From an uncultured Maribacter sp. (lineage in GTDB: Bacteria > Bacteroidota > Bacteroidia > Flavobacteriales > Flavobacteriaceae), in NCBI GenBank assembly GCA_964351985.1, contig CAYGPR010000004.1:67988-131987 (forward strand): 64,000 nucleotides of DNA, given 5' to 3'. The translations under genes were made by a program, and so were the position numbers. The first letter of the stretch is position 1, and each line of letters begins with the position of its first letter. The notes under the pieces are model-generated. The model did no database searches, had not been told where the DNA came from, and saw nothing but the letters and a program-made list of their open reading frames with translations. This document shows, one piece after another, positions 4,281 to 59,127 of the stretch.

Positions 4281-4312
4281 AATAACCCTTAGCGCGAATG
4301 TGCGGGGTTATT
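4281..4312 (+). terminator. Possible stem-loop terminator after the SusD-like gene
   Basis: AATAACCC (4281-4288) pairs with GGGTTATT (4305-4312) across a 16-nt loop, followed by CTTATTTT. The loop is long, so the call is weak. Confidence 0.3.
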
Positions 4313-4350
4313 CTTATTTTAGGCATGTTTTGATTTTGAATTCATTTGCT

Positions 4351-7300
4351 ATGAATAAGTATATGTTTTTTCTTTTTTTGATAGTGCTGTTCTTCTCATG
4401 TAAAAAAGAGCCCACGACCCTCTTTTCTAAATTGGATGCACCTGATACGGGTATCTCCTTTAAAAATGACCTGACCGAAACCCATACCTACAATTATTTT
4501 ACCTACCCGTATATGTATTTGGGCGGTGGAGTATCGACCGGAGATATCAATAACGACGGTCTGGAGGATATTTTTTTTACCGGAAATATGGTTCCTAATA
4601 AATTATATTTGAACAAAGGTGATTTTAAGTTTGAAGACATTTCTGCAAGTGCTGGAATAGAAGGTGATGAACGTTGGTACGCGGGTACTACTTTTGTCGA
4701 TATCAACCAAGATGGGTACTTGGATATTTATTGCTCTGTGAGCGGCAAAAACCCTCCGCACAATAATGTACTCTACATCAACAATCAAGACAATACCTTT
4801 TCTGAAAAGGCGGCCGAATATGGCATTGACTGTAACGGGTACAACATGCAATCTACCTTTTTCGACTATGACAAAGATGGGGATCTTGATTTATATGTTA
4901 CCAACTATCCACCCACAAGTTTTGTGGCACCCGTCGCATATTACAGTTATATGCTCGAAAATCATGCCCCTGAAGATTCAGATAAATTGTATCGAAACGA
5001 CAATGGCAAATTCACCGACGTAACGGAAGAAGCGGGTCTGCGTTCTTTCGGCCTGAGTTTGGGGGTGGTTGCTTCCGATGTTAACAACGACGGATATGCC
5101 GATATTTTTGTTTCCAATGATTTTAATGCCCCCGATTTCCTGTTTATAAATAACCAAGACGGAACCTTTACCAATCAAATCGATACCAGCCTACAGCAGA
5201 CATCGTTCTTCGGCATGGGTGCCGACATCGCCGATTTTAACAATGACGGCTATATGGATATTTTTCAGCTTGATATGTCGGCCGAAGACAATTTTCGTTC
5301 AAAGGCTAACATGTCGGCCATGGATCCGGCGGCTTTTTACGAATCCGTAGATTCTGGATTGCATCATCAATATATGCAAAATTCGTTGCAGTTGAACAAT
5401 GGTAATGAGGCGGATAAGTTGCCCGTATTTAGTAATGTAGCCCGTTTGGCAGGTGTTTCTTCCACCGATTGGAGCTGGGGCGGACTATTGGCCGATTTTG
5501 ATAACGATGGGTGGAAAGACCTTTTCGTGACCAACGGCATCCGTAGAGATGTCAACAATAAGGATTTTTACGGTAAGTACCGTGATTTTTTCAACAAGAT
5601 GGAGAACGACCCCAACTATAAGGACAAAGAAGAGGAAGTGGAGCTCTTGAAATATCTCGAGGAATTACCTTCCGAGAAATTGAGCAACTATATGTTCAAG
5701 AACAATGGAGACCTGACCTTTTCCAAAAAAACCAAGGATTGGGGTTTTGAGGAAAAAACGTTCTCCAATGGAGTGGCCTATTCCGACTTGGATAATGATG
5801 GTGATTTGGATCTGGTCATCAATAATTTGGAGGATATTGCAAGTGTCTATATAAACAACACCACGAATAAAAACCAGTTGACCCTTGATTTGAAAGGCAA
5901 AGACAAAGTGCTTCCGAACGGAAGTAAGGCTGTCATCTATTCCCCTTCTGGAACTCAGGTACAAGAGTACAATACCGTAAGAGGGTATTTATCCTCCGTA
6001 TCCCCCCTGCTTCATTTTGGTCTGGGAGATGAAAAGCAAGCGGACAGTATATTGGTCACCTGGCCTAATGGAAGGGTTACTAAGATGACTGATGTTAAGG
6101 GTGACCAGAGGTTGACCATAGCCTATGACGAAAGCAAGACAACCGACAAAAGTGGTTCGAAATCGAACGATTCTGATAAACGATTTCAAACAGTTGTATT
6201 GGATACTACCGGGCTATTTAAGCATCAAGAGAATCCGTTTAACGATTTTGAGGTAGAAGTGTTATTGCCTCATAAAAACTCGACATTGGGCCCGTCTTTG
6301 GCCGTAGGTGACCTGAATGGAGACGGTATCGATGATTACATTGTAGGAGCCGCCATTGGGCAGCCTGCATTGGCCTATGTCCAGAATGAGGCGGGTGATT
6401 TTGAGCAACTGCACATACCGGATTTGGATGAGGACAAATACTATGAAGACCTAGGCATTCTTATTTTCGATGCAGATAACGATGGCGACAATGATTTTTA
6501 TATCGCTTCAGGGGGCAACGAGTTCAAGCCGGGGTCTTTGGGATATGAAGATCGACTCTATGAAAATATGGGATCCAATACATTTCGAAGAAATAAAGGA
6601 GCTATTCCTGACACAAAGACTAGTGGTCAGAATGTATCAGTGGCCGATTACGACCACGACGGAGATTTAGACCTGTTTGTGGGCGGAAGATTGATCCCGA
6701 AAAAATACCCCTATCCTGCGGATTCTTATATTCTAGAGAATATCAGTACCGCTACAGGCCCCAAGTTTCAGGATGCTACGGCAAATGTGCTTCCCGAACT
6801 GAAATCATTGGGTCTGGTGACTTCTTCGGTTTGGACCGATTTCGATAAAGATGGCTGGGAAGACCTTGTCGTAGTAGGCGAGTGGATGCCCATAAAATTC
6901 TTCAAGAACAAAGGCGGCACCTCCTTTGAGGATGTCTCTGAAAAAATATTACCAGGTAAGACTTCGGGTTGGTGGTTCGATATCCAAAAAGGGGATTTTG
7001 ACAACGACGGCGACGAAGATTTGGTAGTAGGTAATCTAGGAAAGAACTATAAATATCAAGCCAGTGAAGAATCTCCTTTTAAAGTGTATCTGAACGATTT
7101 TGACAGTAATAAAACTTCCGATATCGTTTTGAGCTATAAGATGGGCGAGACTGAATTCCCAGTACGTGGGCGGCAATGTTCTTCACAACAAATGCCCGCC
7201 ATTAAAGCAAAATTTCAGGATTATAATTCTTTCGCAAGTGCGAATCTAAAACAAATATATACGACCGAAATGTTGGAAAACGCATTAAGCTATGAGGTCA

Positions 7301-28597: not shown

Positions 28598-28945
28598 CTA
28601 ATAGTTAGAAGCAGTGCCGATTCCCATCGAGGCAAAAATAGTATCCATCAAGGCCGTTTCCTTTTCATGTACAAAACCATCGGAGATGGCCACTTCTTCT
28701 AAAATTTCTATCAAAGATAATTTCTTGGGCCTTGGCATTTCGCGAAGAATTCTTAGAACTTGTTCTCGGGAAAAGTTGCGTGCCTGTAAGATAAAGTTAC
28801 TGTCAAAATCAATGCGATGCATCAATCGGTTCAAGGCGCTGATTTCTGCTTTATGAATAGTGCCGTCTGCAAGAATAACAGAATCAACAGCACGCACAAT
28901 AGCTAGCTTTTCGACTACGTTAAAGTCTTCTGTGATTGGTGTCAT
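28598..28945 (-). CDS. TerB-like (tellurite-resistance TerB fold) small protein
   Basis: The pattern EKLAIVRAVDSVILADGTIHKAEISALNRL...LEEVAISDGFVHEKETALM is characteristic of the TerB/DUF-type co-chaperone-like fold. Confidence 0.55.
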   Translation of the reverse strand: MTPITEDFNVVEKLAIVRAVDSVILADGTIHKAEISALNRLMHRIDFDSNFILQARNFSREQVLRILREMPRPKKLSLIEILEEVAISDGFVHEKETALMDTIFASMGIGTASNY

Positions 28946-29089: not shown

Positions 29090-32000
29090 TCAGTTAGTGA
29101 TTGATTCGACGGACATCCGTGATTCAAATGGAGCTAGGGACTTCAAGGCTTTTTCTACAGAAGTGATTCCTTCAAAAACCAATAACAAACGCAATCCGTT
29201 CCGGGTTTGTTTCTCTTTCATTTTACACTTCTGAGGATTCGATTGTACAAACTGCAACACTTTCGTGAAAGCTGCACTTTGGTAGAACTCCGATTGCTGG
29301 TCGGCTATAAAATAGCCTATCAACTTCCCTTTTTTCATAACGACTTTCTCGAGTCCGATGCTGTTGGCAATCCATTTGATCCGGACGGAGTTCAATAAAT
29401 CTTCGGCCTGTGAGGGCAATTCACCAAAACGGTCTAACAGTTGTGCTTCGAATTTCTGTAGCCCTTCCTCATCCTTGACCTGGTTCAACTCGGTGTACAG
29501 ATTCAGGCGTTCAGTAATGTTGTTGATGTAATCATCGGGAAACTGCAATTGAAAATCGGAATCGATTTGGGTGTCTTTGACGAAAACTTTTTCTTTATGA
29601 CCTTCAACTTCTTCGTAAAGCTCTTTGAATTCGGTCTCTTTGAGTTCATCGATGGCCTCGGCCAATATTTTTTGGTAGGTTTCAAAACCGATTTCGTTGA
29701 TGAATCCGCTTTGTTCGCCGCCCAGCAAATCTCCAGCTCCGCGAATCTCCAAATCTTTCATCGCGATATTGAATCCGCTACCCAATGCGGTAAACTGCTC
29801 GAGTGCTTCAATACGCTTTCGGGCATCGGGAGTCATCACATCATACGGAGGAGTGATAAAATAACAGAACGCTTTTTTGTTGCTGCGGCCTACACGGCCC
29901 CGCATTTGATGCAGGTCGCTGAGCCCGAAATTATTGGCGTTATTAATAAAAATGGTGTTGGCATTGGTCACATCGAGTCCGCTTTCGACGATGGTGGTAG
30001 AAACGAGCACATCGAATTCCCCATTCATAAATGATAACATCAAGGTCTCTAGTTTCTTGCCTTCCATTTGACCGTGGCCGATACCGACCTTGGCATCGGG
30101 AACCAATCTCTGAATCATGCCGGCGACTTCTTTAATATTTTCTATCCGGTTGTGGATAAAAAATACTTGCCCGCCGCGTTGTATTTCATAGCTAATTGCA
30201 TCGCGAATGGTTTCTTCGGCAAACCGGATAACCCGACTTTCGATGGGGTATCGGTTCGGCGGAGGCGTATTGATCACAGAGAGGTCCCGAGCCGCCATCA
30301 AACTAAATTGTAACGTTCGTGGAATCGGTGTCGCCGTCAAGGTCAATACATCAACATTCTCTTTGATAGATTTTAATTTATCCTTTACGGAAACCCCAAA
30401 TTTCTGCTCTTCGTCAACGATGAGCAGGCCAAGGTCTTTAAATTTGACGTTTTTATTGACCAGTTGGTGAGTACCGATAATGATATCGACTTTCCCAACT
30501 TCCAACTTCTCTAAAGTTTCACGACGTTCTTTTGTGGTGCGGAAACGGTTTAAATAATCTACCGTAACGGGCATTTCCTTTAGACGTTCTGTAAAAGTTC
30601 TGTGATGCTGAAAAGCTAGAATGGTTGTCGGAACTAAAACCGCTACTTGTTTTCCATTATCGACCGCTTTGAAGGCGGCGCGAATGGCGACTTCCGTTTT
30701 TCCGAAACCTACATCGCCACAAATCAGACGGTCCATAGGTCGTTCACTCTCCATATCACGCTTGACATCTTCGGTAGATTTACTTTGGTCCGGTGTGTCC
30801 TCGTAAATAAAAGAGGCCTCCAGTTCATTTTGCAAATAACTGTCCGGTCCATATTGAAACCCCTTGTCCAAACGTCGTTTCGCATAGACTTTGATAAGGT
30901 CAAAAGCGATTTTCTTGACCCGTGTTTTGGTTTTCTGTTTGAGCTTTTTCCATGTCGCTGAGCCTAATTTGTAGATTTTCGGCACGGCACCATCTTTACC
31001 ATTGAATTTTGAAATTTTATGAAGCGAATGTATACTTACATAAAGCGTATCACGATCCCCGTACATCAATTTGATGGCTTCCTGTTTTTTTCCTTCTACA
31101 TCGATTTTTTGTAATCCCCCGAACTTGCCGATTCCATGGTCGATATGGGTCACATAATCCCCGATTTCGAGTTTGTTGAGTTCTTTGAGCGTGATGGCCT
31201 GCTTTTTTGCATAGCCATTTTTCAGGTGGAATTTATGATAGCGCTCAAAAATTTGATGGTCGGTATAGCAGACGATTTTCAGATCGTCATCGATAAACCC
31301 TTGGTACAATGGAAATATCAGGGTTTCATAATGCACGTGCTCATTGGCATCCTCAAAAATGGCATGGAACCGTTTCGCTTGTTGCTCGCTGGCACAGAAG
31401 ATATAGTTGGTATAGCCTTCAGCTTTATGTTCGTTCAGGTTGGCAATCAGTAAATCGAACTTTTTGTTGAACGAGGGTTGGGGCTTGGTCCGAAATTCAA
31501 TTTCGCGACCCTGCCCTTCGGTTACGCTCAGGGTCCTCCCTCGGTCGCTGAGCGTAACCGAAGTGACAGAGGTGGTTATCAACCCAAACTTTTCCAACTG
31601 CTTCCCAAAACTATCCGAATTCAAAAAAAGTTCCTCCGGTTCGGCATGTTTTATGTCTTTGGAAAGCCTCCCAAAAGCTTCGATGGCCTTTCCGTAGAAA
31701 TCATCCAAACGGTCAAAAAGCAAATCGGTATTCTTTGTGAAAATGATGGTTTCGAAGGAAATGTATTTCAGGAAACTCTCCCTTTTTTCTTCCAAAAGTT
31801 TATTCGCCACATTGGGAATGATGCTTATTTTCTTGATCTTTTCGGTAGATAGCTGCGTCTCCACATCGAACGTACGGATGCTTTCCACCTCATCCCCAAA
31901 AAACTCTAAACGATAGGGTTCGTCATGCGAAAAGGAAAAAACATCAACTATACCACCACGTACGGAGAACTCTCCCGGTTCGGTTACAAAATCGACTCTT

Positions 32001-32497
32001 TTAAATTGGTATTCAAAAAGCACTTCGTTCAGAAAGTCGAGTGAAAGCGAATCTTCTAATTTTATTTTGAGGGTGTTTTTTTCAAGTTCCCTGCGGGTAA
32101 CCACCTTTTCAAAGAGCGCATCGGGATAGGTTACGATGACCGCAGGTCTTTTTCTGGAATTGATGCGATTTAAAACTTCCGCACGTAATAGAACGTTCGC
32201 ATTGTCGGTTTCTTCAATTTGATATGGTCGACGATAACTACCGGGATAAAACAGCACATCTTTTTCGCCGATGAGTTGCTCAAGATCATTGAGGTAATAG
32301 GCTGCTTCTTCTTTGTCGTTAAAAATCAGGAGAAATGGTTTGTCGGCCTCTTTGAATACATACGAAAGTACAAAGGATAAAGAGGAGCCTGTTAAACCTT
32401 TTATAGCAATACTTTTTTCGGGATGGGCAAGGGCCTCCTGCAGTTTCCTTGTTTTTGGAGACTGTGAAAACACTTCCTGAATGCTGACCTTCGACAA
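29090..32497 (-). CDS. mfd: Transcription-repair coupling factor
   Basis: About 1135 aa. Has the UvrB-homology N-terminus, CarD/RID-like region, superfamily-2 motor (GDVGFGKTEVA, IVDEEQKFG) and TRG motif region. The start appears to be TTG at 32497: an in-frame TAG lies 6 nt upstream, and no ATG occurs before conserved sequence. Confidence 0.95.
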   Translation of the reverse strand: MSKVSIQEVFSQSPKTRKLQEALAHPEKSIAIKGLTGSSLSFVLSYVFKEADKPFLLIFNDKEEAAYYLNDLEQLIGEKDVLFYPGSYRRPYQIEETDNANVLLRAEVLNRINSRKRPAVIVTYPDALFEKVVTRRELEKNTLKIKLEDSLSLDFLNEVLFEYQFKRVDFVTEPGEFSVRGGIVDVFSFSHDEPYRLEFFGDEVESIRTFDVETQLSTEKIKKISIIPNVANKLLEEKRESFLKYISFETIIFTKNTDLLFDRLDDFYGKAIEAFGRLSKDIKHAEPEELFLNSDSFGKQLEKFGLITTSVTSVTLSDRGRTLSVTEGQGREIEFRTKPQPSFNKKFDLLIANLNEHKAEGYTNYIFCASEQQAKRFHAIFEDANEHVHYETLIFPLYQGFIDDDLKIVCYTDHQIFERYHKFHLKNGYAKKQAITLKELNKLEIGDYVTHIDHGIGKFGGLQKIDVEGKKQEAIKLMYGDRDTLYVSIHSLHKISKFNGKDGAVPKIYKLGSATWKKLKQKTKTRVKKIAFDLIKVYAKRRLDKGFQYGPDSYLQNELEASFIYEDTPDQSKSTEDVKRDMESERPMDRLICGDVGFGKTEVAIRAAFKAVDNGKQVAVLVPTTILAFQHHRTFTERLKEMPVTVDYLNRFRTTKERRETLEKLEVGKVDIIIGTHQLVNKNVKFKDLGLLIVDEEQKFGVSVKDKLKSIKENVDVLTLTATPIPRTLQFSLMAARDLSVINTPPPNRYPIESRVIRFAEETIRDAISYEIQRGGQVFFIHNRIENIKEVAGMIQRLVPDAKVGIGHGQMEGKKLETLMLSFMNGEFDVLVSTTIVESGLDVTNANTIFINNANNFGLSDLHQMRGRVGRSNKKAFCYFITPPYDVMTPDARKRIEALEQFTALGSGFNIAMKDLEIRGAGDLLGGEQSGFINEIGFETYQKILAEAIDELKETEFKELYEEVEGHKEKVFVKDTQIDSDFQLQFPDDYINNITERLNLYTELNQVKDEEGLQKFEAQLLDRFGELPSQAEDLLNSVRIKWIANSIGLEKVVMKKGKLIGYFIADQQSEFYQSAAFTKVLQFVQSNPQKCKMKEKQTRNGLRLLLVFEGITSVEKALKSLAPFESRMSVESITN
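31515..31562. repeat. Perfect 16-bp inverted repeat with 16-nt spacer, in frame inside mfd
   Basis: CTTCGGTTACGCTCAG (31515-31530) and CTGAGCGTAACCGAAG (31547-31562) are exact reverse complements. Total 48 nt = 16 codons, encoding (T)SVTLSDRGRTLSVTEG. Confidence 0.85.
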
Positions 32498-38681: not shown

Positions 38682-40316
38682 CTAAGGTATCATTTCCTTT
38701 AAATCCGAAAGGCTATTCGCTTCATGAATATTCTTGTCTTTTCTCCACCTCAACATTCTCGGAAAACGAGTTGCTACTCCACTTTTGTGCCGTTTTGATA
38801 GGGCAATTCCTTCAAAGGCGATTTCAAAAACATGCTGCGGGGTAACCGACCGTACCGGACCGAAACGTTCCAAGGTATTTTTTTTGATCCAATTATCAAC
38901 TTGTCGGAATTCGGCATCGGTCAATCCCGAATAGGCTTTGGCGAAAGTGACCAATTCTTTTTCACCTTCTTCATTCTCGTTCCAAAGTGCAAAAGTGTAA
39001 TCGGTAAAAAGATTACTTCTTCTGCCATGACCTCGCATGGCATAGGTTAAAACCGCGTCAATGGTCAAAGGGTCCACTTTCCATTTCCACCAGTCTCCTT
39101 TTTTTCTTCCTACTAAATAAGGGGAATCCTTTCTTTTGAGCATCAAGCCTTCACTATGGACATCACGTGAACGTTCGCGTTCTTTGGCGACTTCTTGCCA
39201 AGAGTTGAAATGTAGGGTTTCAGAGAGGTGAAACGGCATTTCAATATTGGTGTTCGTAGCCCCTCGACTGCGCTCGGGGTGACATACTGTTTGAAATAAA
39301 TTTTCCAGTAATTTTCGCCTTTCAAGAAATGCTAGGCTCCGGATATCTTTGCCCTTCCATTCGATTAAATCATAAGCCTTTAAAATAACTGGAACTTTTT
39401 TCAATAGTGCTTTGGAAACGGTTTTGCGCCCTATGCGGGTTTGAAGGTCGTTAAAGGTGCCGATTTGGCCTTCCGGATAAGGTAGGATTTCACCATCAAT
39501 TACTGTACCGTTCGGAATGATGCCAATGAATTCTCCGAACTCGGGATACTTGTCAGTGACCAATTCCTCCCCACGGCTCCAAACAAAAATTTCGTCGTTT
39601 CGAAGGATGACTTGCGAGCGGATTCCATCCCATTTATGCTCAGCAGACCATTCGCTGACATCTCCCAAATCATGCACTTTATCTTCAATGGCATAGGCCA
39701 AATAAAAAGGATAGGGTTTGGACAGGTAGTCACTTTCGTTTTCCTCCAAGATTAATTCTTGAAAGGTAATTTGATCGGAATCCCAATTGCCCATGAGTTT
39801 ATAGGCCAGGATATCTTCATCTATTTCAGTGGACTTGGCTAGCGCACGGGTCATCAATTTTTGACTGACCCCAATTCGGAATCCACCAGTAATTAACTTG
39901 GTGAAAACGAAACGTTCATAATAATCCAATACCTTCCAGTTTTCAAAAAGATAGGCTCGTTTTTCTTCGTCGGATTTCTTTTTGAGGGCAATCATTTCCT
40001 CCAAAAATTGGGTCAACTTTTTTTCGGTGGAAGATTTTGAGGAAGGAACTACCAAAGCGATTGTCTCGGCCAAATCGCCCACGATGTGATAACTTTCCTC
40101 AAAAAGCCATAAGGGAATGTTCGACAATTCAGACGCCCACTCACGCAGCAATGTGGTATTTACTGGCCTTGGTGGACGGCGGTGCGACAAGATGGCAATG
40201 GTCCAAACTTTGTCTTTATCGCTCGCAACAGAAAAATAATCGGCCAAGGCCTGAACTTTGACATTGGTCTTGTTAGTACTATCTAGCGTTTTTATGAGTT
40301 GTGCAAAATTCTTCAT
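38682..40316 (-). CDS. ATP-dependent DNA ligase (ligase-associated DNA damage response type)
   Basis: Adenylation motif I AEHKWDGIR (KxDG), motifs EGLMLKRKDSPY and WWKWK, and a C-terminal OB fold. Confidence 0.9.
   Translation of the reverse strand: MKNFAQLIKTLDSTNKTNVKVQALADYFSVASDKDKVWTIAILSHRRPPRPVNTTLLREWASELSNIPLWLFEESYHIVGDLAETIALVVPSSKSSTEKKLTQFLEEMIALKKKSDEEKRAYLFENWKVLDYYERFVFTKLITGGFRIGVSQKLMTRALAKSTEIDEDILAYKLMGNWDSDQITFQELILEENESDYLSKPYPFYLAYAIEDKVHDLGDVSEWSAEHKWDGIRSQVILRNDEIFVWSRGEELVTDKYPEFGEFIGIIPNGTVIDGEILPYPEGQIGTFNDLQTRIGRKTVSKALLKKVPVILKAYDLIEWKGKDIRSLAFLERRKLLENLFQTVCHPERSRGATNTNIEMPFHLSETLHFNSWQEVAKERERSRDVHSEGLMLKRKDSPYLVGRKKGDWWKWKVDPLTIDAVLTYAMRGHGRRSNLFTDYTFALWNENEEGEKELVTFAKAYSGLTDAEFRQVDNWIKKNTLERFGPVRSVTPQHVFEIAFEGIALSKRHKSGVATRFPRMLRWRKDKNIHEANSLSDLKEMIP
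39259..39283. repeat. Repeat-like GC-rich segment in frame inside the ligase gene (encodes CHPERSRGA)
   Basis: In GCCCCTCGACTGCGCTCGGGGTGAC, the 14-mer CTCGACTGCGCTCG (39263-39276) is identical to part of the intergenic palindrome arm at 57306-57319. It lies in the linker between the adenylation and OB domains. Confidence 0.45.
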
Positions 40317-41582: not shown

Positions 41583-41590
41583 TATATTTG
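41583..41590 (+). promoter_or_regulatory. -7 promoter box TATATTTG for the divergent TerB-like gene
   Basis: Matches TAnnTTTG, 21 nt upstream of the ATG at 41612. Confidence 0.4.
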
Positions 41591-41611
41591 CACCCGATAA
41601 AATATCAACAT

Positions 41612-42034
41612 ATGTCCGTTCGAGATCTTTACAGTAGCGATTCAGCAAACAACAACTTGGCACATTTTGGAAGTCTTGCCAGTCTGGCTGCGGTTGATGG
41701 TCATATTGCTGAAGCTGAAATGTCGGTTTTAAAACAATTTGCTCATAAACTTCAAATAACCGATGAACAGTTCAAGGAGGTTATGAAGAAAGAGAACAAA
41801 TACCCGATTGGCCATCAAGTCAGTTATGAAAAAAGGTTAGAACGTTTTTTCGACTTGATGAATATAGTTTTTGCTGATAATGAGGTGAGTGACAATGAAA
41901 TGGTACTGCTAAAACGCTATGCCATCGGACTTGGGTTTCCAAACGACAAGGCTGACAAACTCATCGAAAAGTCCGTTGCCATATTTACCGGAAAAATAGA
42001 TTTTGAGGATTTCATGTACCTGATAAAACGTTAA
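41612..42034 (+). CDS. TerB-like small protein (second paralog)
   Basis: LASLAAVDGHIAEAEMSVLKQFAHKL...VFADNEVSDNEMVLLKRYAIGLGF shows the same fold signature as 28598-28945. I prefer the ATG at 41612 over the ORF-track TTG at 41588. Confidence 0.55.
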   Translation: MSVRDLYSSDSANNNLAHFGSLASLAAVDGHIAEAEMSVLKQFAHKLQITDEQFKEVMKKENKYPIGHQVSYEKRLERFFDLMNIVFADNEVSDNEMVLLKRYAIGLGFPNDKADKLIEKSVAIFTGKIDFEDFMYLIKR

Positions 42035-42060
42035 CTGGGGCTACAATAGCTAGAAATATT

Positions 42061-42088
42061 AAAAAAGGAGGCAATTGCCTCCTTTTTT
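42061..42088. terminator. Bidirectional rho-independent terminator
   Basis: AAAAAA-GGAGGCAATTGCCTCC-TTTTTT, a perfect 16-nt palindrome flanked by A and T runs, between the convergent TerB-like and fbp genes. Confidence 0.8.
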
Positions 42089-43094
42089 AATGGTATTTGT
42101 TCAAAAATTCTTGAAGTTTCTCGACCATTTTTCGACTCCCGCAGAAAAAAGGGACACGTTGGTGCAATTCCGTGGGTTGTATGTCCATTATTCTGTTTTT
42201 TCCTCCAATGGCCAGGCCATTAGCCTGTTCCGCTAAAAACGCCATTGGGTTACATTCATAAAGTAAGCGTAGTTTACCTTCTTCCGTAATACTGCTCTTC
42301 GGATACATATAGATTCCTCCTTTGATCATGTTACGATGAAAATCAGATACTAGAGAACCAATATATCTTGAGGTGTAGGGCCGGTCATCTTCTTCCTGTT
42401 GACAATATTTGATGTAGTCTTTTACGCCTTGATGAAAGTGGATGTAATTTCCTTCGTTTACTGAATAAATTTTTCCCGTTTCGGGGAATTGCATATCCGG
42501 ATGCGATAAATAGAACGTTCCGATCGCTGGATTTAGCGTGAAACCGTTTACACCGTCTCCGGTGGTATATACCAACATCGTCGAGGTGCCGTAGACCACA
42601 TAACCCGCAGCGACCTGTTCTTTGCCCGGTTGTAGAAAATCTTCTAAAGTTACAGGAGTACCTACAGGTGTTATTCTTCTATATATTGAAAAAATAGTAC
42701 CGACCGATACGTTTACATCAACATTTGAAGAACCATCTAAGGGGTCGATGAGCACCACATACTTGTTTTGGTGATTTTCATCATTGCTGTTAATGCTGAT
42801 AAAATCATCTTCTTCTTCTGAGGCTATTCCACAAACGATTTCTCGGTTCGTAAGGGTGTTAATGAATTTTTCGTTGGCAAACACATCCAATTTTTGCTGG
42901 TCCTCACCTTGAATATTCGTATCTCCGGCCTTTCCTAAAATATCTACAAGTCCTGCTTTGTTGACCTCATGGTTGACGACTTTTGCCGCCAAACGAATCG
43001 CATTTATCAATTTAGAAAGTTCTCCCGAAGAATATTGAAAAGAATTTTGATTTTCAATAATGAACTCTCCTAGCGTTTGATTTTTCTTGGTCAT
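42087..43094 (-). CDS. fbp: Fructose-1,6-bisphosphatase class 1
   Basis: Motifs [38 protein letters not shown] and TLGEFII near the N-terminus. I prefer the ATG at 43094 over the GTG at 43121. Confidence 0.92.
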
Positions 43095-43181
43095 TACAAC
43101 TTGGGTTTGTGTTTTGACCACAAATATCCAATATTTTGTGATGCCATGCCATTTTCTTTTAATGTTCTCTTTTTAAATTTA

Positions 43182-56580: not shown

Positions 56581-56607
56581 CGCGGACTTGCCCCCGAGGT
56601 AGTTTAC
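56581..56607. repeat. Repeat unit C, partial copy 3 (CGCGGACTTGCCCCCGAGGTAGTTTAC)
   Basis: Shares CTTGCCCC(R)AGGTAGTTTA with 50464-50482 and 9236-9253. Overlaps the stop codon of the 56604-57257 gene. Confidence 0.6.
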
Positions 56608-57257
56608 TTTTCTTGGGAATTTTTGGTTGTGCCGAGATAGACCCATGCTTTTTTACCGGATGCCAAGCGTACTTGTTTTCTAATATATTCTTGACCCTCG
56701 TAAAAATCTGCTGCCAAAAGTTCGTCTGGCGTTAAAACGTAACATATTCCGGCAACGGTGTCTTCCTCATTTTCTGTATGGGTGATAGTCGGATACGCAT
56801 TTGCGATTTTTATTTCTGAAATTTTATGACCCCTTAAGATATCTTGTGCTCCTTCTAGCGTTCTAGAGAAATGAGCCATTTGTATCGTTTCGTCCTGCAG
56901 GGTTCCATAGGTAAAAAGGTATTGGGTGGCACTTCCCTTTTCATTCCGGTGCTCGCTGACAACCTCCATTTCGGTGCGAAAGGAAACAAATTTTCCGGCA
57001 AATCGTTTTTGAACATCTTGTCTTAATCTTGCCGCATCTTCTTTATAGTATTGGCTCAAAGTATCTTTGTCAATGGTAGTGAATTGCACCGAATAGGTAA
57101 TACCACCCATTTCTTCTTCGACCAAGACCCTGCTCATCTTGGCATTCAAGAATTTCCCCGTCGCCAAGACATCTGAAATATGGGTTTCCTTCATCCATTT
57201 CACCCATTCGTCATGAACGGATTCTTCGATATTCGTGGTTACGTTGTAGATGTACAT
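56604..57257 (-). CDS. Fusion protein: N-terminal DUF4286 + C-terminal gamma-glutamylcyclotransferase-like (AIG2/GGACT) domain
   Basis: The N-terminal ~100 aa (MYIYNVTTNIEESVHDEWVKWMKETHI...) is DUF4286-like. The C-terminal part has YLFTYGTLQD and ...FYEGQEYIRKQV, typical of the GGCT-like fold. Confidence 0.6.
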   Translation of the reverse strand: MYIYNVTTNIEESVHDEWVKWMKETHISDVLATGKFLNAKMSRVLVEEEMGGITYSVQFTTIDKDTLSQYYKEDAARLRQDVQKRFAGKFVSFRTEMEVVSEHRNEKGSATQYLFTYGTLQDETIQMAHFSRTLEGAQDILRGHKISEIKIANAYPTITHTENEEDTVAGICYVLTPDELLAADFYEGQEYIRKQVRLASGKKAWVYLGTTKNSQEK

Positions 57258-57267
57258 TCTTGTCTGT

Positions 57268-57320
57268 TCGAGCGCAGTCGAGAACTACCTGTTGTATAAA
57301 TAGGTCTCGACTGCGCTCGA
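57268..57320. repeat. Perfect 16-bp inverted repeat TCGAGCGCAGTCGAGA / TCTCGACTGCGCTCGA with 21-nt spacer
   Basis: Arms at 57268-57283 and 57305-57320, intergenic between the TPR gene stop and the DUF4286 gene start. No U-tract, so it is REP-like rather than a classical terminator. Confidence 0.85.
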
Positions 57321-57339
57321 CCTGCCAGGCGAATATGAT

Positions 57340-59127
57340 TCAATTCACGGCATCTCCCCTTAGCATTCTAAACGTTTTCCGCGCCTGCGGAAAATAATAG
57401 CTATCCTGATAATTATAGATGATCTTTTCATAATGCTCCTTTGCTTTTTCAGGCTCGTTGAGCACTTTTCGATAAAGTTCGGCGAGGGCGAAGTGGGCAT
57501 CGTCGGCCAAAATTCCGTTTCCGTAGAATTCGGTTATTTTTTGGTAATTGAACTTGGCGGCCTCGTAGTCTTTTGTAGCTTCCAAAAGTTCGCCCTGCTT
57601 TAAGAGTGCTTCATCCTCTATTTTTTCTCCTTTGTGTTCTTGAAGAATGGTTTCTAATTCGGCTATGGCTTCCTTCGTTTTGTTTTGATAGGCCAACAAA
57701 TCGGCGCGTGCGTATTTTTTCAATGCGGTCCGCGTAGAATCTTCAAGAGAATTATCCGATATCAAAAGACTCAATTGCATCGCATCGTTCGCGATCAACT
57801 GTGAAGTCGACCCCCGAAGCACTTTGAGCTGTGTCAAGGCCCAATCAAAATCTCCTTTGTAGAAACTTGTCTGTGCTACTTTGTACCGGGCGTTTTGGCC
57901 CATAACATCATTTTTGAGCTTTTTTTGGATTTGGGAAAAATAGATGAGGGCCTCATTGAATTTTTTATCGAATACCAAAATATCGCCCAAGGCCAATTTT
58001 ATATAGGCTATGCCGCGCTCGTTCAGGGGAAGTTCCAAACTTTTTTTGAGCATATCGATTGCCGGTTCGGGAGTATCTTTTCTAAAGGTCAAAAAGTTCG
58101 CATAGGCCACTTGAAGCTGTAACGTTTGACTTTTATAGCCGTGAATATTCGTGAGCTCTTCGTATCGTTTTTGAATGACGTCCAACTTTTTGTTATCTGC
58201 ATCGAGCAGTTGAATATCGATAAGGTTCAGTTCGGCATCAAGTTGGGTCACTTCGTTGTTCGTATTGGCAATGATGTACTCATAGATTTCGGTTGCCGTC
58301 GGTATGGCATCATTTTCAAAAGCCATATCGGCCAACCCTTCTAGACGCTGCACGGAACTGGCATCGGTTCGTTTGTAAATGGCCTTTTCTTGCCGAAATG
58401 CACTATCGTACTGTTGTTGCTGTACAAATAGCCAGCTCAAAAGTTCGTTCCATAAGATATTAGGATTCTTTTGGGCGTTTTGAAGCAGTATGCGCTTTAG
58501 TTTTATGTTGTTCTCGTTTTCGGGATCGCTTGAAATAAAATCGTCGATACCTCGAAGAATATTTGATTTTGATGCTTTGCCCTCACCAATTAAGGTAAGA
58601 TAGGCTTCGTACATTTTTTCTATATCTCCTTGTTCGCCGTAGATGCGGGCCTTTTGATAATTGTAGTCCAGTTGCGGATTGAGTTCCATGGCCCTTGAAT
58701 ACGCTTTCAGCGCATAATCGAGCAGGGCGTATTGTTGGAATTTGAACCCGAGGCCGTAACCGAAATTAGGATTTTCGTCGATCTTCAAAATCGCCCTATC
58801 GTAATACGTAGTGGCCTTTACAGGTTCGTCTTGTAGCGTATAATTGTAGCCCAGTTCCACAAAAAGGGTAGGGTATGGATTGCCTTCATCGACTTTCTTT
58901 AGAAGGAAATCCTCAGCATCGGTATAACGTTCCAGTTGTTGGTAACAGGCAACCAACCCTTCGGCATAATCGGTTCTGCGGGGGTCCCTATCGACCAGTT
59001 TTTCATAGAAGACGACCGCTTTTTCGAAATCGCCATCGGCAAAGTATTGTTTTGCCAAGAAATCGTCTTGAGCAAAAGTGGAGGTTAGAAGTACGAGGTA
59101 CGAAATTAAAAGTATTAGTTTTCGCAT
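57340..59127 (-). CDS. Tetratricopeptide-repeat (TPR) protein, secreted
   Basis: Signal peptide MRKLILLISYLVLLTSTFAQ. TPR-like helical repeats throughout (YF..GDF.KA...YE). Confidence 0.75.
   Translation of the reverse strand: MRKLILLISYLVLLTSTFAQDDFLAKQYFADGDFEKAVVFYEKLVDRDPRRTDYAEGLVACYQQLERYTDAEDFLLKKVDEGNPYPTLFVELGYNYTLQDEPVKATTYYDRAILKIDENPNFGYGLGFKFQQYALLDYALKAYSRAMELNPQLDYNYQKARIYGEQGDIEKMYEAYLTLIGEGKASKSNILRGIDDFISSDPENENNIKLKRILLQNAQKNPNILWNELLSWLFVQQQQYDSAFRQEKAIYKRTDASSVQRLEGLADMAFENDAIPTATEIYEYIIANTNNEVTQLDAELNLIDIQLLDADNKKLDVIQKRYEELTNIHGYKSQTLQLQVAYANFLTFRKDTPEPAIDMLKKSLELPLNERGIAYIKLALGDILVFDKKFNEALIYFSQIQKKLKNDVMGQNARYKVAQTSFYKGDFDWALTQLKVLRGSTSQLIANDAMQLSLLISDNSLEDSTRTALKKYARADLLAYQNKTKEAIAELETILQEHKGEKIEDEALLKQGELLEATKDYEAAKFNYQKITEFYGNGILADDAHFALAELYRKVLNEPEKAKEHYEKIIYNYQDSYYFPQARKTFRMLRGDAVN

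Follow-up and report, generated by a model that had tools for sequence, protein, structure and literature searches.

The gene mfd in a 64,000-nucleotide (nt) stretch of an uncultured Maribacter sp. contig (CAYGPR010000004.1, positions 67,988 to 131,987; hereafter the window) contains a perfect palindrome with 16-bp arms. It is probably an inverted dimer resembling repetitive extragenic palindromic sequences (REPs), made of two units of a hairpin repeat family dispersed in Flavobacteriaceae. The dimer most likely sits in frame in a tolerant loop of the Mfd protein as selfish or neutral DNA, outside the mechanism of Mfd itself. Both arms belong to the family, relatives hold an orthologous dimer, the host loop is hypervariable and enriched in palindromes, and the arms are conserved at the DNA level. 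The gene and the parts of the palindrome are as follows.

29090-32497, minus strand: mfd, coding for the transcription-repair coupling factor (1135 amino acids, aa), assigned from named homologs, Pfam domains and a structure match
31508-31573, minus strand: full predicted hairpin of the mfd sense strand, with a stem of 16 + 5 + 3 bp, one bulge and one unpaired position
31516-31531: arm 1 of the perfect palindrome, CTTCGGTTACGCTCAG (read on the plus strand), from the sequence and an inverted-repeat search
31532-31547: 16-nt spacer, GGTCCTCCCTCGGTCG (read on the plus strand), partly self-pairing; its minus strand holds D318-R321 and parts of codons S317 and T322
31548-31563: arm 2 of the perfect palindrome, CTGAGCGTAACCGAAG (read on the plus strand), from the sequence and an inverted-repeat search

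The arms CTTCGGTTACGCTCAG and CTGAGCGTAACCGAAG are reverse complements without a mismatch (16/16 bp), with 16 nt between them. The initial annotation had the arms and the spacer right but placed the palindrome at 31515-31562, one base too low. Pairing extends past 16 bp: a repeat search gives 21/21 nt at 90% around a 6-nt loop. The mfd-sense RNA of 31508-31573 folds as a single hairpin with an outer stem of about 24 bp (-43.9 kcal/mol, z = -5.7), which none of 200 shuffles equaled in stability. The palindrome had also been called rare for a window of this size, and analytically a perfect stem of 16 bp or more around a 3–40-nt loop is indeed expected 8e-4 times in 64 kb. Among first-order Markov simulations, one run of 60 gave a 16-bp stem; the other 59 gave at most 13 bp. 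The whole window has just two such inverted repeats, the one in mfd and an intergenic one at 57268-57320. The palindrome in mfd is real and far above chance. No direct repeat flanks it in the sequence. Rfam returned no matches over the whole window at gathering thresholds, and around the hairpin only chance-level microRNA and leader matches.

The palindrome is coding, as first noted: its 48 nt are a multiple of three and specify T312-G328 (TSVTLSDRGRTLSVTEG) on the minus strand. The quasi-palindromic character of this peptide is no separate feature but follows from the DNA, whose near-symmetric core GGTTACG/CGTAACC is translated in two phases.

The arms match a hairpin family of flavobacteria, absent from Rfam, whose loop is conserved and whose stem varies. 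Its unit consists of a 12-nt conserved loop, GAGCGNAGYCGA, and a 4–7-bp stem whose sequence differs by copy yet stays complementary. In the window together with 1.05 Mb of fetched flavobacterial DNA we count the core GAGCGCAGTCGA 15 times, in some cases outside mfd, where 0.13 occurrences would be expected in all. A looser pattern, GAGCG.AG[TC]CGA, finds 43 units in 1.36 Mb from many genomes. At least four contiguous complementary bases stand directly beside the 12-mer in 31/43 units, where chance would give about 0.4% each. The stems include CACT/AGTG, CCCT/AGGG, TTTC/GAAA and GGCT/AGCC, among others, and TCA often precedes the unit. In a set of 30 units, 90.7% of cells are paired, compared with 59% in shuffles, and 55 cells are changed on both sides; because this set was partly selected for pairing, the unbiased figure is 31/43. 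In the literature library searched, we found no description of a flavobacterial REP family or of a REP-associated transposase (RAYT) from this group.

We built a covariance model, R1, from family units with the mfd arms excluded and ran it over the window with filters off; its E-values are rough. R1 finds exactly five convincing units, including both mfd arms.

31511-31536, minus strand: family unit in mfd, GGACCCUGAGCGUAACCGAAGGGCAG, itself a hairpin of stem CCCU/AGGG and loop GAGCGUAACCGA (R1 23.4 bits, E 1.4e-4)
31543-31568, plus strand: family unit in mfd in the opposite orientation, GGTCGCTGAGCGTAACCGAAGTGACA (R1 22.0 bits, E 3.6e-4)

Since R1 matches the two arms in opposite orientation, the mfd palindrome is an inverted dimer of family units. 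The initial annotation had linked it to the other palindromes of the window through a GC-rich spacer core; that link does not hold, and the likeness lies in the arms instead (CTGAGCGTAACCGAAG resembles CTGAGCGCAGTCGAAG). Further inverted dimers occur in L001, L004, L021, L165, L063 and L017. The units of one dimer often belong to different subtypes, and perfect dimers (the window, L004, L001, L165 and L021) form a subset; in these, copying must relate the two arms.

The same dimer is present at the matching codon position in relatives with about 87–90% Mfd protein identity. In L004 (protein P0004) the linker reads GCT TCG ACT GCG CTC AGT ... CTG AGC GCA GTC GAA G, with arms CTTCGACTGCGCTCAG(T) and (A)CTGAGCGCAGTCGAAG forming a perfect 17-bp stem around a spacer of 17–19 nt. 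L001 (P0017) and L165 (P0066) have arms of the L004 type, loops of 16–18 nt, and a shared reading frame and upstream context. The frame, the left-arm position and the 5' flank align without gaps between the window and its relatives, including L165. The element therefore does not look like a fresh insertion private to the window genome, as relatives hold the orthologous dimer at this very codon position.

Compared with CTTCGACTGCGCTCAG, the window arm CTTCGGTTACGCTCAG has three changes (A>G, C>T, G>A), all of them mirrored in the partner (GCAGTC > GTAACC). The window loop GAGCGTAACCGA departs from the degenerate consensus GAGCGNAGYCGA once, at G8>A; the two remaining arm changes sit at naturally variable loop positions (N6 and Y9). 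Arms that are perfectly complementary though off the family consensus point to copying between arms and not to independent drift. L061 (P0039) is intermediate, with TAGCCGA in its right unit opposite TCGGCTA in its left, and the subtype GAGCGTAGCCGA recurs in L061, L063 and L165. Descent of the window and L061 variant from a common source was considered and rejected, since the two fall in different clades of a neighbor-joining (NJ) tree made without bootstrap; the shared variant therefore reflects homoplasy, exchange or a recurring subtype.

Other relatives show the element in various states. L014, L015, L017 and L088 have two uncompensated arm mismatches. L003, the nearest neighbor of the window in the quick NJ tree, has lost the left arm; L166 has two direct units; and in L170 the right unit is replaced by a hairpin of another family. 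Lineages differ in how the right unit is translated, LSAVE or TERSRSD, which means that frame-shifting indels occur within the element and that its peptide is unconstrained. The forward unit has a TGA in one of its three frames, and only the other two frames are seen.

The host protein is a full-length Mfd, with the Pfam domains UvrB_inter, CarD_TRCF_RID, DEAD/Helicase_C and TRCF all present. A phmmer search against solved structures matches it to the E. coli Mfd structures 2EYQ and 6X26 (E about 6e-194). The nearest Mfd proteins are 90–91% identical, and those named come from Maribacter, Aurantibacter, Zobellia and relatives, all Flavobacteriaceae. The element makes up residues 312-328, between predicted strands at 305-308 and 331-334. 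The phmmer alignment to E. coli Mfd covers residues 33-228 and 393-1061 and leaves 229-392 unaligned, so the insert is placed by interpolation from the flanks, apparently close to where the UvrB-homology module (D1b) meets domain 3.

We aligned this linker in 120 Mfd homologs of at least 83% identity. The palindrome segment is bounded by ...FGLIT and (E)FxTKPQPSFNKKF, and between these motifs sequence and length both vary freely. Linkers range from 11 to 56 aa, with 25 aa in the window and 12 aa in the shortest proteins (1112 aa). An indel of 16 aa had been foreseen; an indel is present, but it amounts to about 13 aa relative to insert-free relatives (12 versus 25 aa). In an AlphaFold model, residues 311-328 have a predicted local distance difference test score (pLDDT) below 50 and no secondary structure, with neighboring segments at pLDDT 84–87; the full-length model is poor (mean pLDDT 55, predicted template modeling score 0.38, shallow alignment), and we use this local contrast alone. 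The host segment is probably a disordered surface loop.

The loop is a hotspot for palindromes. We counted perfect stems with a GC fraction of at least 0.35 in 155 mfd loci, comparing the 130-nt linker (20 kb in total) with the other 458 kb. Stems of at least 12 bp number six in the linker and none in the rest of mfd; at 10 bp or more the counts are 10 and four. In other genera the occupants are palindromes of unrelated families, listed here as arm, spacer and, where given, partner arm.

Aquimarina L021: CGAGCGGAGTCGAG, 30 nt, CTCGACTCCGCTCG
Algibacter L024: CTGAACTTGTTTCAG, 17 nt
Microcosmobacter L029: CTGAGGCTCTCGAA, 32 nt
Aureibaculum L039: CTGACAGGTTT, 3 nt, AAACCTGTCAG
Tenacibaculum L064: GAACTTGTTTC, 21 nt
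L108: GAAGCAATCT, 13 nt
L170 and L086: hairpin ACCCTGAA, ACAAG, TTCAGGGT

The last of these is identical in L170 and L086, which are distantly related genomes.

In relatives, mfd has taken up insertions in frame at one more place, around aa 385, following IFE[DE]V (proteins P0066, P0116, P0080, P0092 and P0010). This second site holds dimers of the family found in the window, translated as ASTALSDQDDAPTDTERSRS, ASTPLSNQKTGTERSRS and NASPERSRK. The DNA copies at this site are as follows.

L165: 1614-1680
L063: 6123-6180
L017: 6189-6260
L083: 6149

N-terminal units occur in some relatives (L168 at position 644, L128 at position 916), for example in P0013 (1162 aa) with the peptide IAPSVRLSAVESPVKI; they fall where the alignment consensus is variable, at aa 25-33. 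The window mfd has no family unit at the N-terminal or aa 385 sites.

The initial annotation proposed a miniature palindromic element fixed in frame in a repair gene, and this proposal stands: Mfd orthologs lack the segment or differ in it, and the arms belong to a dispersed family with related copies elsewhere in the window. We consider it likely that the dimer is selfish or neutral repeat DNA and owes its survival to its landing place. The family would spread or persist in the manner of REPs, and insertions in mfd would survive only where extra unconstrained residues are tolerated and the length keeps the frame open. The perfection of the arms could arise by intrastrand template switching at a quasi-palindrome, or the dimer could have been made by inverted duplication of one unit. 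By another route, the left arm would first have been lost, as in L003, and then regenerated from the right unit through fold-back copying; the gap-free alignment of left arm and 5' flank with L165 weakens this idea, and we keep it as one possible route to perfect arms.

Several results weigh against this explanation, and the first concerns the rate of change. Four-fold degenerate sites of mfd are near-saturated among these genomes (0.43–0.72, mean 0.635), yet the 32 arm nt diverge by just 0.03–0.25 among holders of canonical arms, and L004 and L001 differ at 1/32. The conservation includes the silent third positions of TCG ACT GCG CTC, so that the arms are conserved as DNA and not as peptide. 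A single ancient insertion under plain neutral decay would not be expected to show this. The second is that covariation of the long dimer stem is modest and carried by few lineages. Among 12 arm pairs, 85.4% of cells pair and three pairs (6 cells) are changed on both sides; the covariation score is 0.152 compared with 0.110 in shuffles (reached in 1/500, and the both-side changes in 3/500), a control that related sequences can exceed without any structure. The third is that the exact variant GGTTACGCTCAG...CTGAGCGTAACC has no second copy in the 64-kb window, and GGTTACGCTCAG N6-30 CTGAGCGTAACC occurs 0 times in 185,579 species-representative genomes and 0 times in Joint Genome Institute (JGI) metagenome contigs, collections that evidently both lack the source genome. 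A mobile subfamily with such arms is thus undocumented. Finally, no REP-associated transposase (Y1 domain, RAYT) was found in the 20 window open reading frames (ORFs) scanned against Pfam.

Arm conservation beside saturated silent sites calls for either selection on DNA or RNA, or repeated re-insertion or homogenization from the dispersed family. We tentatively favor a cause at the level of the family over a function specific to mfd, because many close relatives lack the element or have a decayed one, the Mfd loop also hosts other families, and intergenic copies keep the same conserved loop.

In a different history, the window copy was inserted recently and independently, or came about by ectopic conversion, with a genome-specific subfamily of GGTTACGCTCAG arms as its source, and does not descend from the dimer of the relatives. 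Fresh-looking copies beside saturated silent sites fit this idea, as do the natural variability of the family at two of the three changed positions and the presence of GAGCGTAGCCGA, one step from the window subtype, in the non-sister genomes L061, L063 and L165. Different families have clearly entered the Mfd loop independently in other genera. We nevertheless regard this history as unlikely, given that the variant was not found again in the window or in either public collection and that the left arm and 5' flank align in frame and gap-free with L165.

We give less credence to the hairpin as a functional cis element of mfd with its structure under selection. It could act as an mRNA hairpin, pausing the ribosome between folding modules or affecting mRNA stability, or as a DNA hairpin affecting replication or transcription. 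The great stability of the fold speaks for such a role, as do the conserved four-fold degenerate third positions of the arms and both-side changes and covariation above nearly all shuffles. All three arm changes are compensated and all are transitions, so that G-U intermediates are conceivable. Many close relatives, however, do without the element or have lost one arm (L003), uncompensated mismatches persist in L014, L015, L017 and L088, and L170 has the hairpin of a different family. Loop length and reading frame both vary, the shuffle control has the weakness given above, and the family also occupies intergenic DNA and other genes, so that conservation tracks the family and not mfd. The putative effect on mfd expression or replication, raised early on, is disfavored as an essential function since the element is lost or decayed in many relatives.

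A related idea, which we hold just as doubtful, is that a trans-acting factor (a hairpin-recognizing transposase or an RNA- or single-stranded-DNA-binding protein) reads the hairpins. Certain Mfd loops, and perhaps loops of further repair genes like the ligase, would then serve as targeted or retained landing sites, and the mutual compensation of the window arms would stem from selection favoring a long hairpin in the mfd transcript or template. The idea draws on the 12-nt loop being conserved across genera while the stems covary, and on the mfd arms outlasting silent-site saturation.

Mfd goes through large domain movements, and an in-frame insert at a domain junction might suggest an adaptive linker extension at the protein level with an incidental palindrome. 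This is very improbable, as the peptide is unconserved, the DNA is read in two frames among lineages, the length spans 11 to 56 aa, and what is conserved is the nucleotide sequence, silent positions included. A chance palindrome or an assembly artifact can be dismissed despite the single 16-bp stem in the Markov simulations, given the analytic expectation, the fit of the arms to an independently built family model, the orthologous dimers in several independent assemblies and the intact reading frame.

As an in-frame REP-like palindromic repeat, the mfd element belongs to a known kind and involves no new mechanism. REPs inside genes and in frame, often as dimers coding for 20–30 aa, have been described and suggested to lie within flexible linkers (Di Nocera et al., 2013; PMC3733652). 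They are notably frequent in genes of DNA synthesis and repair (uvrA/B/C/D, recBCD, polA, dnaE2 and DNA ligase), and mfd is unmentioned as a host in that paper (PMC3733652). In-frame insertions of REPs and of Rickettsia palindromic elements (RPEs) are reviewed in PMC10969869. Like intragenic REPs, the flavobacterial units are short, GC-rich dispersed stem-loops, often inverted dimers, mostly intergenic and sometimes in frame. The repair-gene hosts are a further likeness, here with a dimer in mfd, a unit in a DNA ligase gene and a dimer in intergenic DNA. Unlike GTAG/CGTC REPs, the 43 units are not consistently flanked by GTAG/CTAC or CGTC/GACG; CTAC or CTAT follows only three window units, and neither is present at the mfd arms. 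The flavobacterial family further departs from REPs in that the loop is conserved and the stem variable, and its hosts belong to a different phylum from the species of PMC3733652.

RPEs are the classic in-frame palindromic elements (Ogata et al., 2000, as summarized in PMC10969869 and PMC3733652). They share with the mfd element a palindromic repeat in frame in a housekeeping gene that adds a peptide at a place judged compatible with the fold and leaves the gene intact. Elements of the RPE-1 type, however, are about 100–150 bp, have a conserved peptide and are specific to Rickettsia, whereas the mfd element is 48–66 bp with an unconserved peptide and no sequence similarity to them. Miniature inverted-repeat transposable elements, or MITEs, are likewise small, non-autonomous, repeated, of inverted symmetry and occasionally in frame in genes. 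They measure 70–300 bp and have target-site duplications and the terminal inverted repeats of a parent insertion sequence (IS); the mfd element is below this size, has no flanking duplication and no identified parent IS, and its unit is a 20–26-nt hairpin. Template switching is a documented process that makes quasi-palindromes more perfect (PMC7202029). It would copy a change in one arm to its partner, which would account for the three mirrored changes. As a mutational process it involves no element family, and the pattern alone suggests its action in mfd.

In-frame palindromic repeats are known, with repair genes noted as frequent hosts, and mfd joins the list. One short Mfd loop, and at least one more in relatives, has been colonized repeatedly by several unrelated repeat families, which makes the loop a natural marker of insertion tolerance in the protein. 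The locus is also convenient for studying how arm complementarity is kept up, by template switching or by selection. Recurrent colonization of the loop and DNA-level conservation of the arms are most worth following. For annotation, peptides such as ASTALS..., LSAVE, TERSRSD and HPERSRG should be read as repeat-derived and not as functional motifs.

The remaining R1 units in the window form an intergenic dimer and a single unit.

57263-57325: intergenic dimer, with units at 57263-57288 (plus strand) and 57300-57325 (minus strand), found by R1
39257-39282, minus strand: single unit GTCACCCCGAGCGCAGTCGAGGGGC in the ORF of an ATP-dependent DNA ligase (38682-40316, minus strand; R1 35.7 bits, E 1.9e-8)

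The intergenic dimer has perfect 16-bp arms (57268-57283 and 57305-57320) with a 21-nt spacer, and its unit order is opposite to that in mfd. CTAC or CTAT comes after its units. The dimer takes up the 82-nt gap from the stop of a TPR-protein gene (57340-59127, minus strand) to the start of a DUF4286/GGACT gene (56604-57257, minus strand), and may be a terminator or a hairpin at the mRNA end. The ligase unit codes for HPERSRG in the context CHPERSRGAT; the L003 ortholog has equal length and a decayed copy, GTCATGTTGGGCCTGTCGAAGCAC, translated as CHVGPVEAL. The ligase gene is the second repair gene in the window to host a family repeat. Outside the window, L017 (Allomuricauda sp. M10) has a tandem array at 4299-4908, immediately upstream of mfd, with 3.9 copies of a 157-nt unit at 88% matches and family-type hairpins in each copy, for example AACCCTTCGACTCCGCTCAGGGTC.

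Directly downstream of the mfd palindrome, in the mfd sense, lies a second, small hairpin, GGTCGCGAAATTGAATTTCGGACC (31487-31510), which codes for GREIEFRT and has a similar counterpart in L170; the E-I-x-F codons may be enough to account for it. The window has two small ORFs with TerB domains (28598-28945 and 41588-42034). The first adjoins mfd downstream, an arrangement conserved in L003, L004, L167, L169 and L170. The second (plus strand, TerB-like) converges with an ORF at 42087-43121 (minus strand), and between them at 42058-42091 lies an AT-rich near-perfect palindrome of 15–18 bp, ATTAAAAAAGGAGGCAAT / ATTGCCTCCTTTTTTAAT, which looks like a bidirectional intrinsic terminator.

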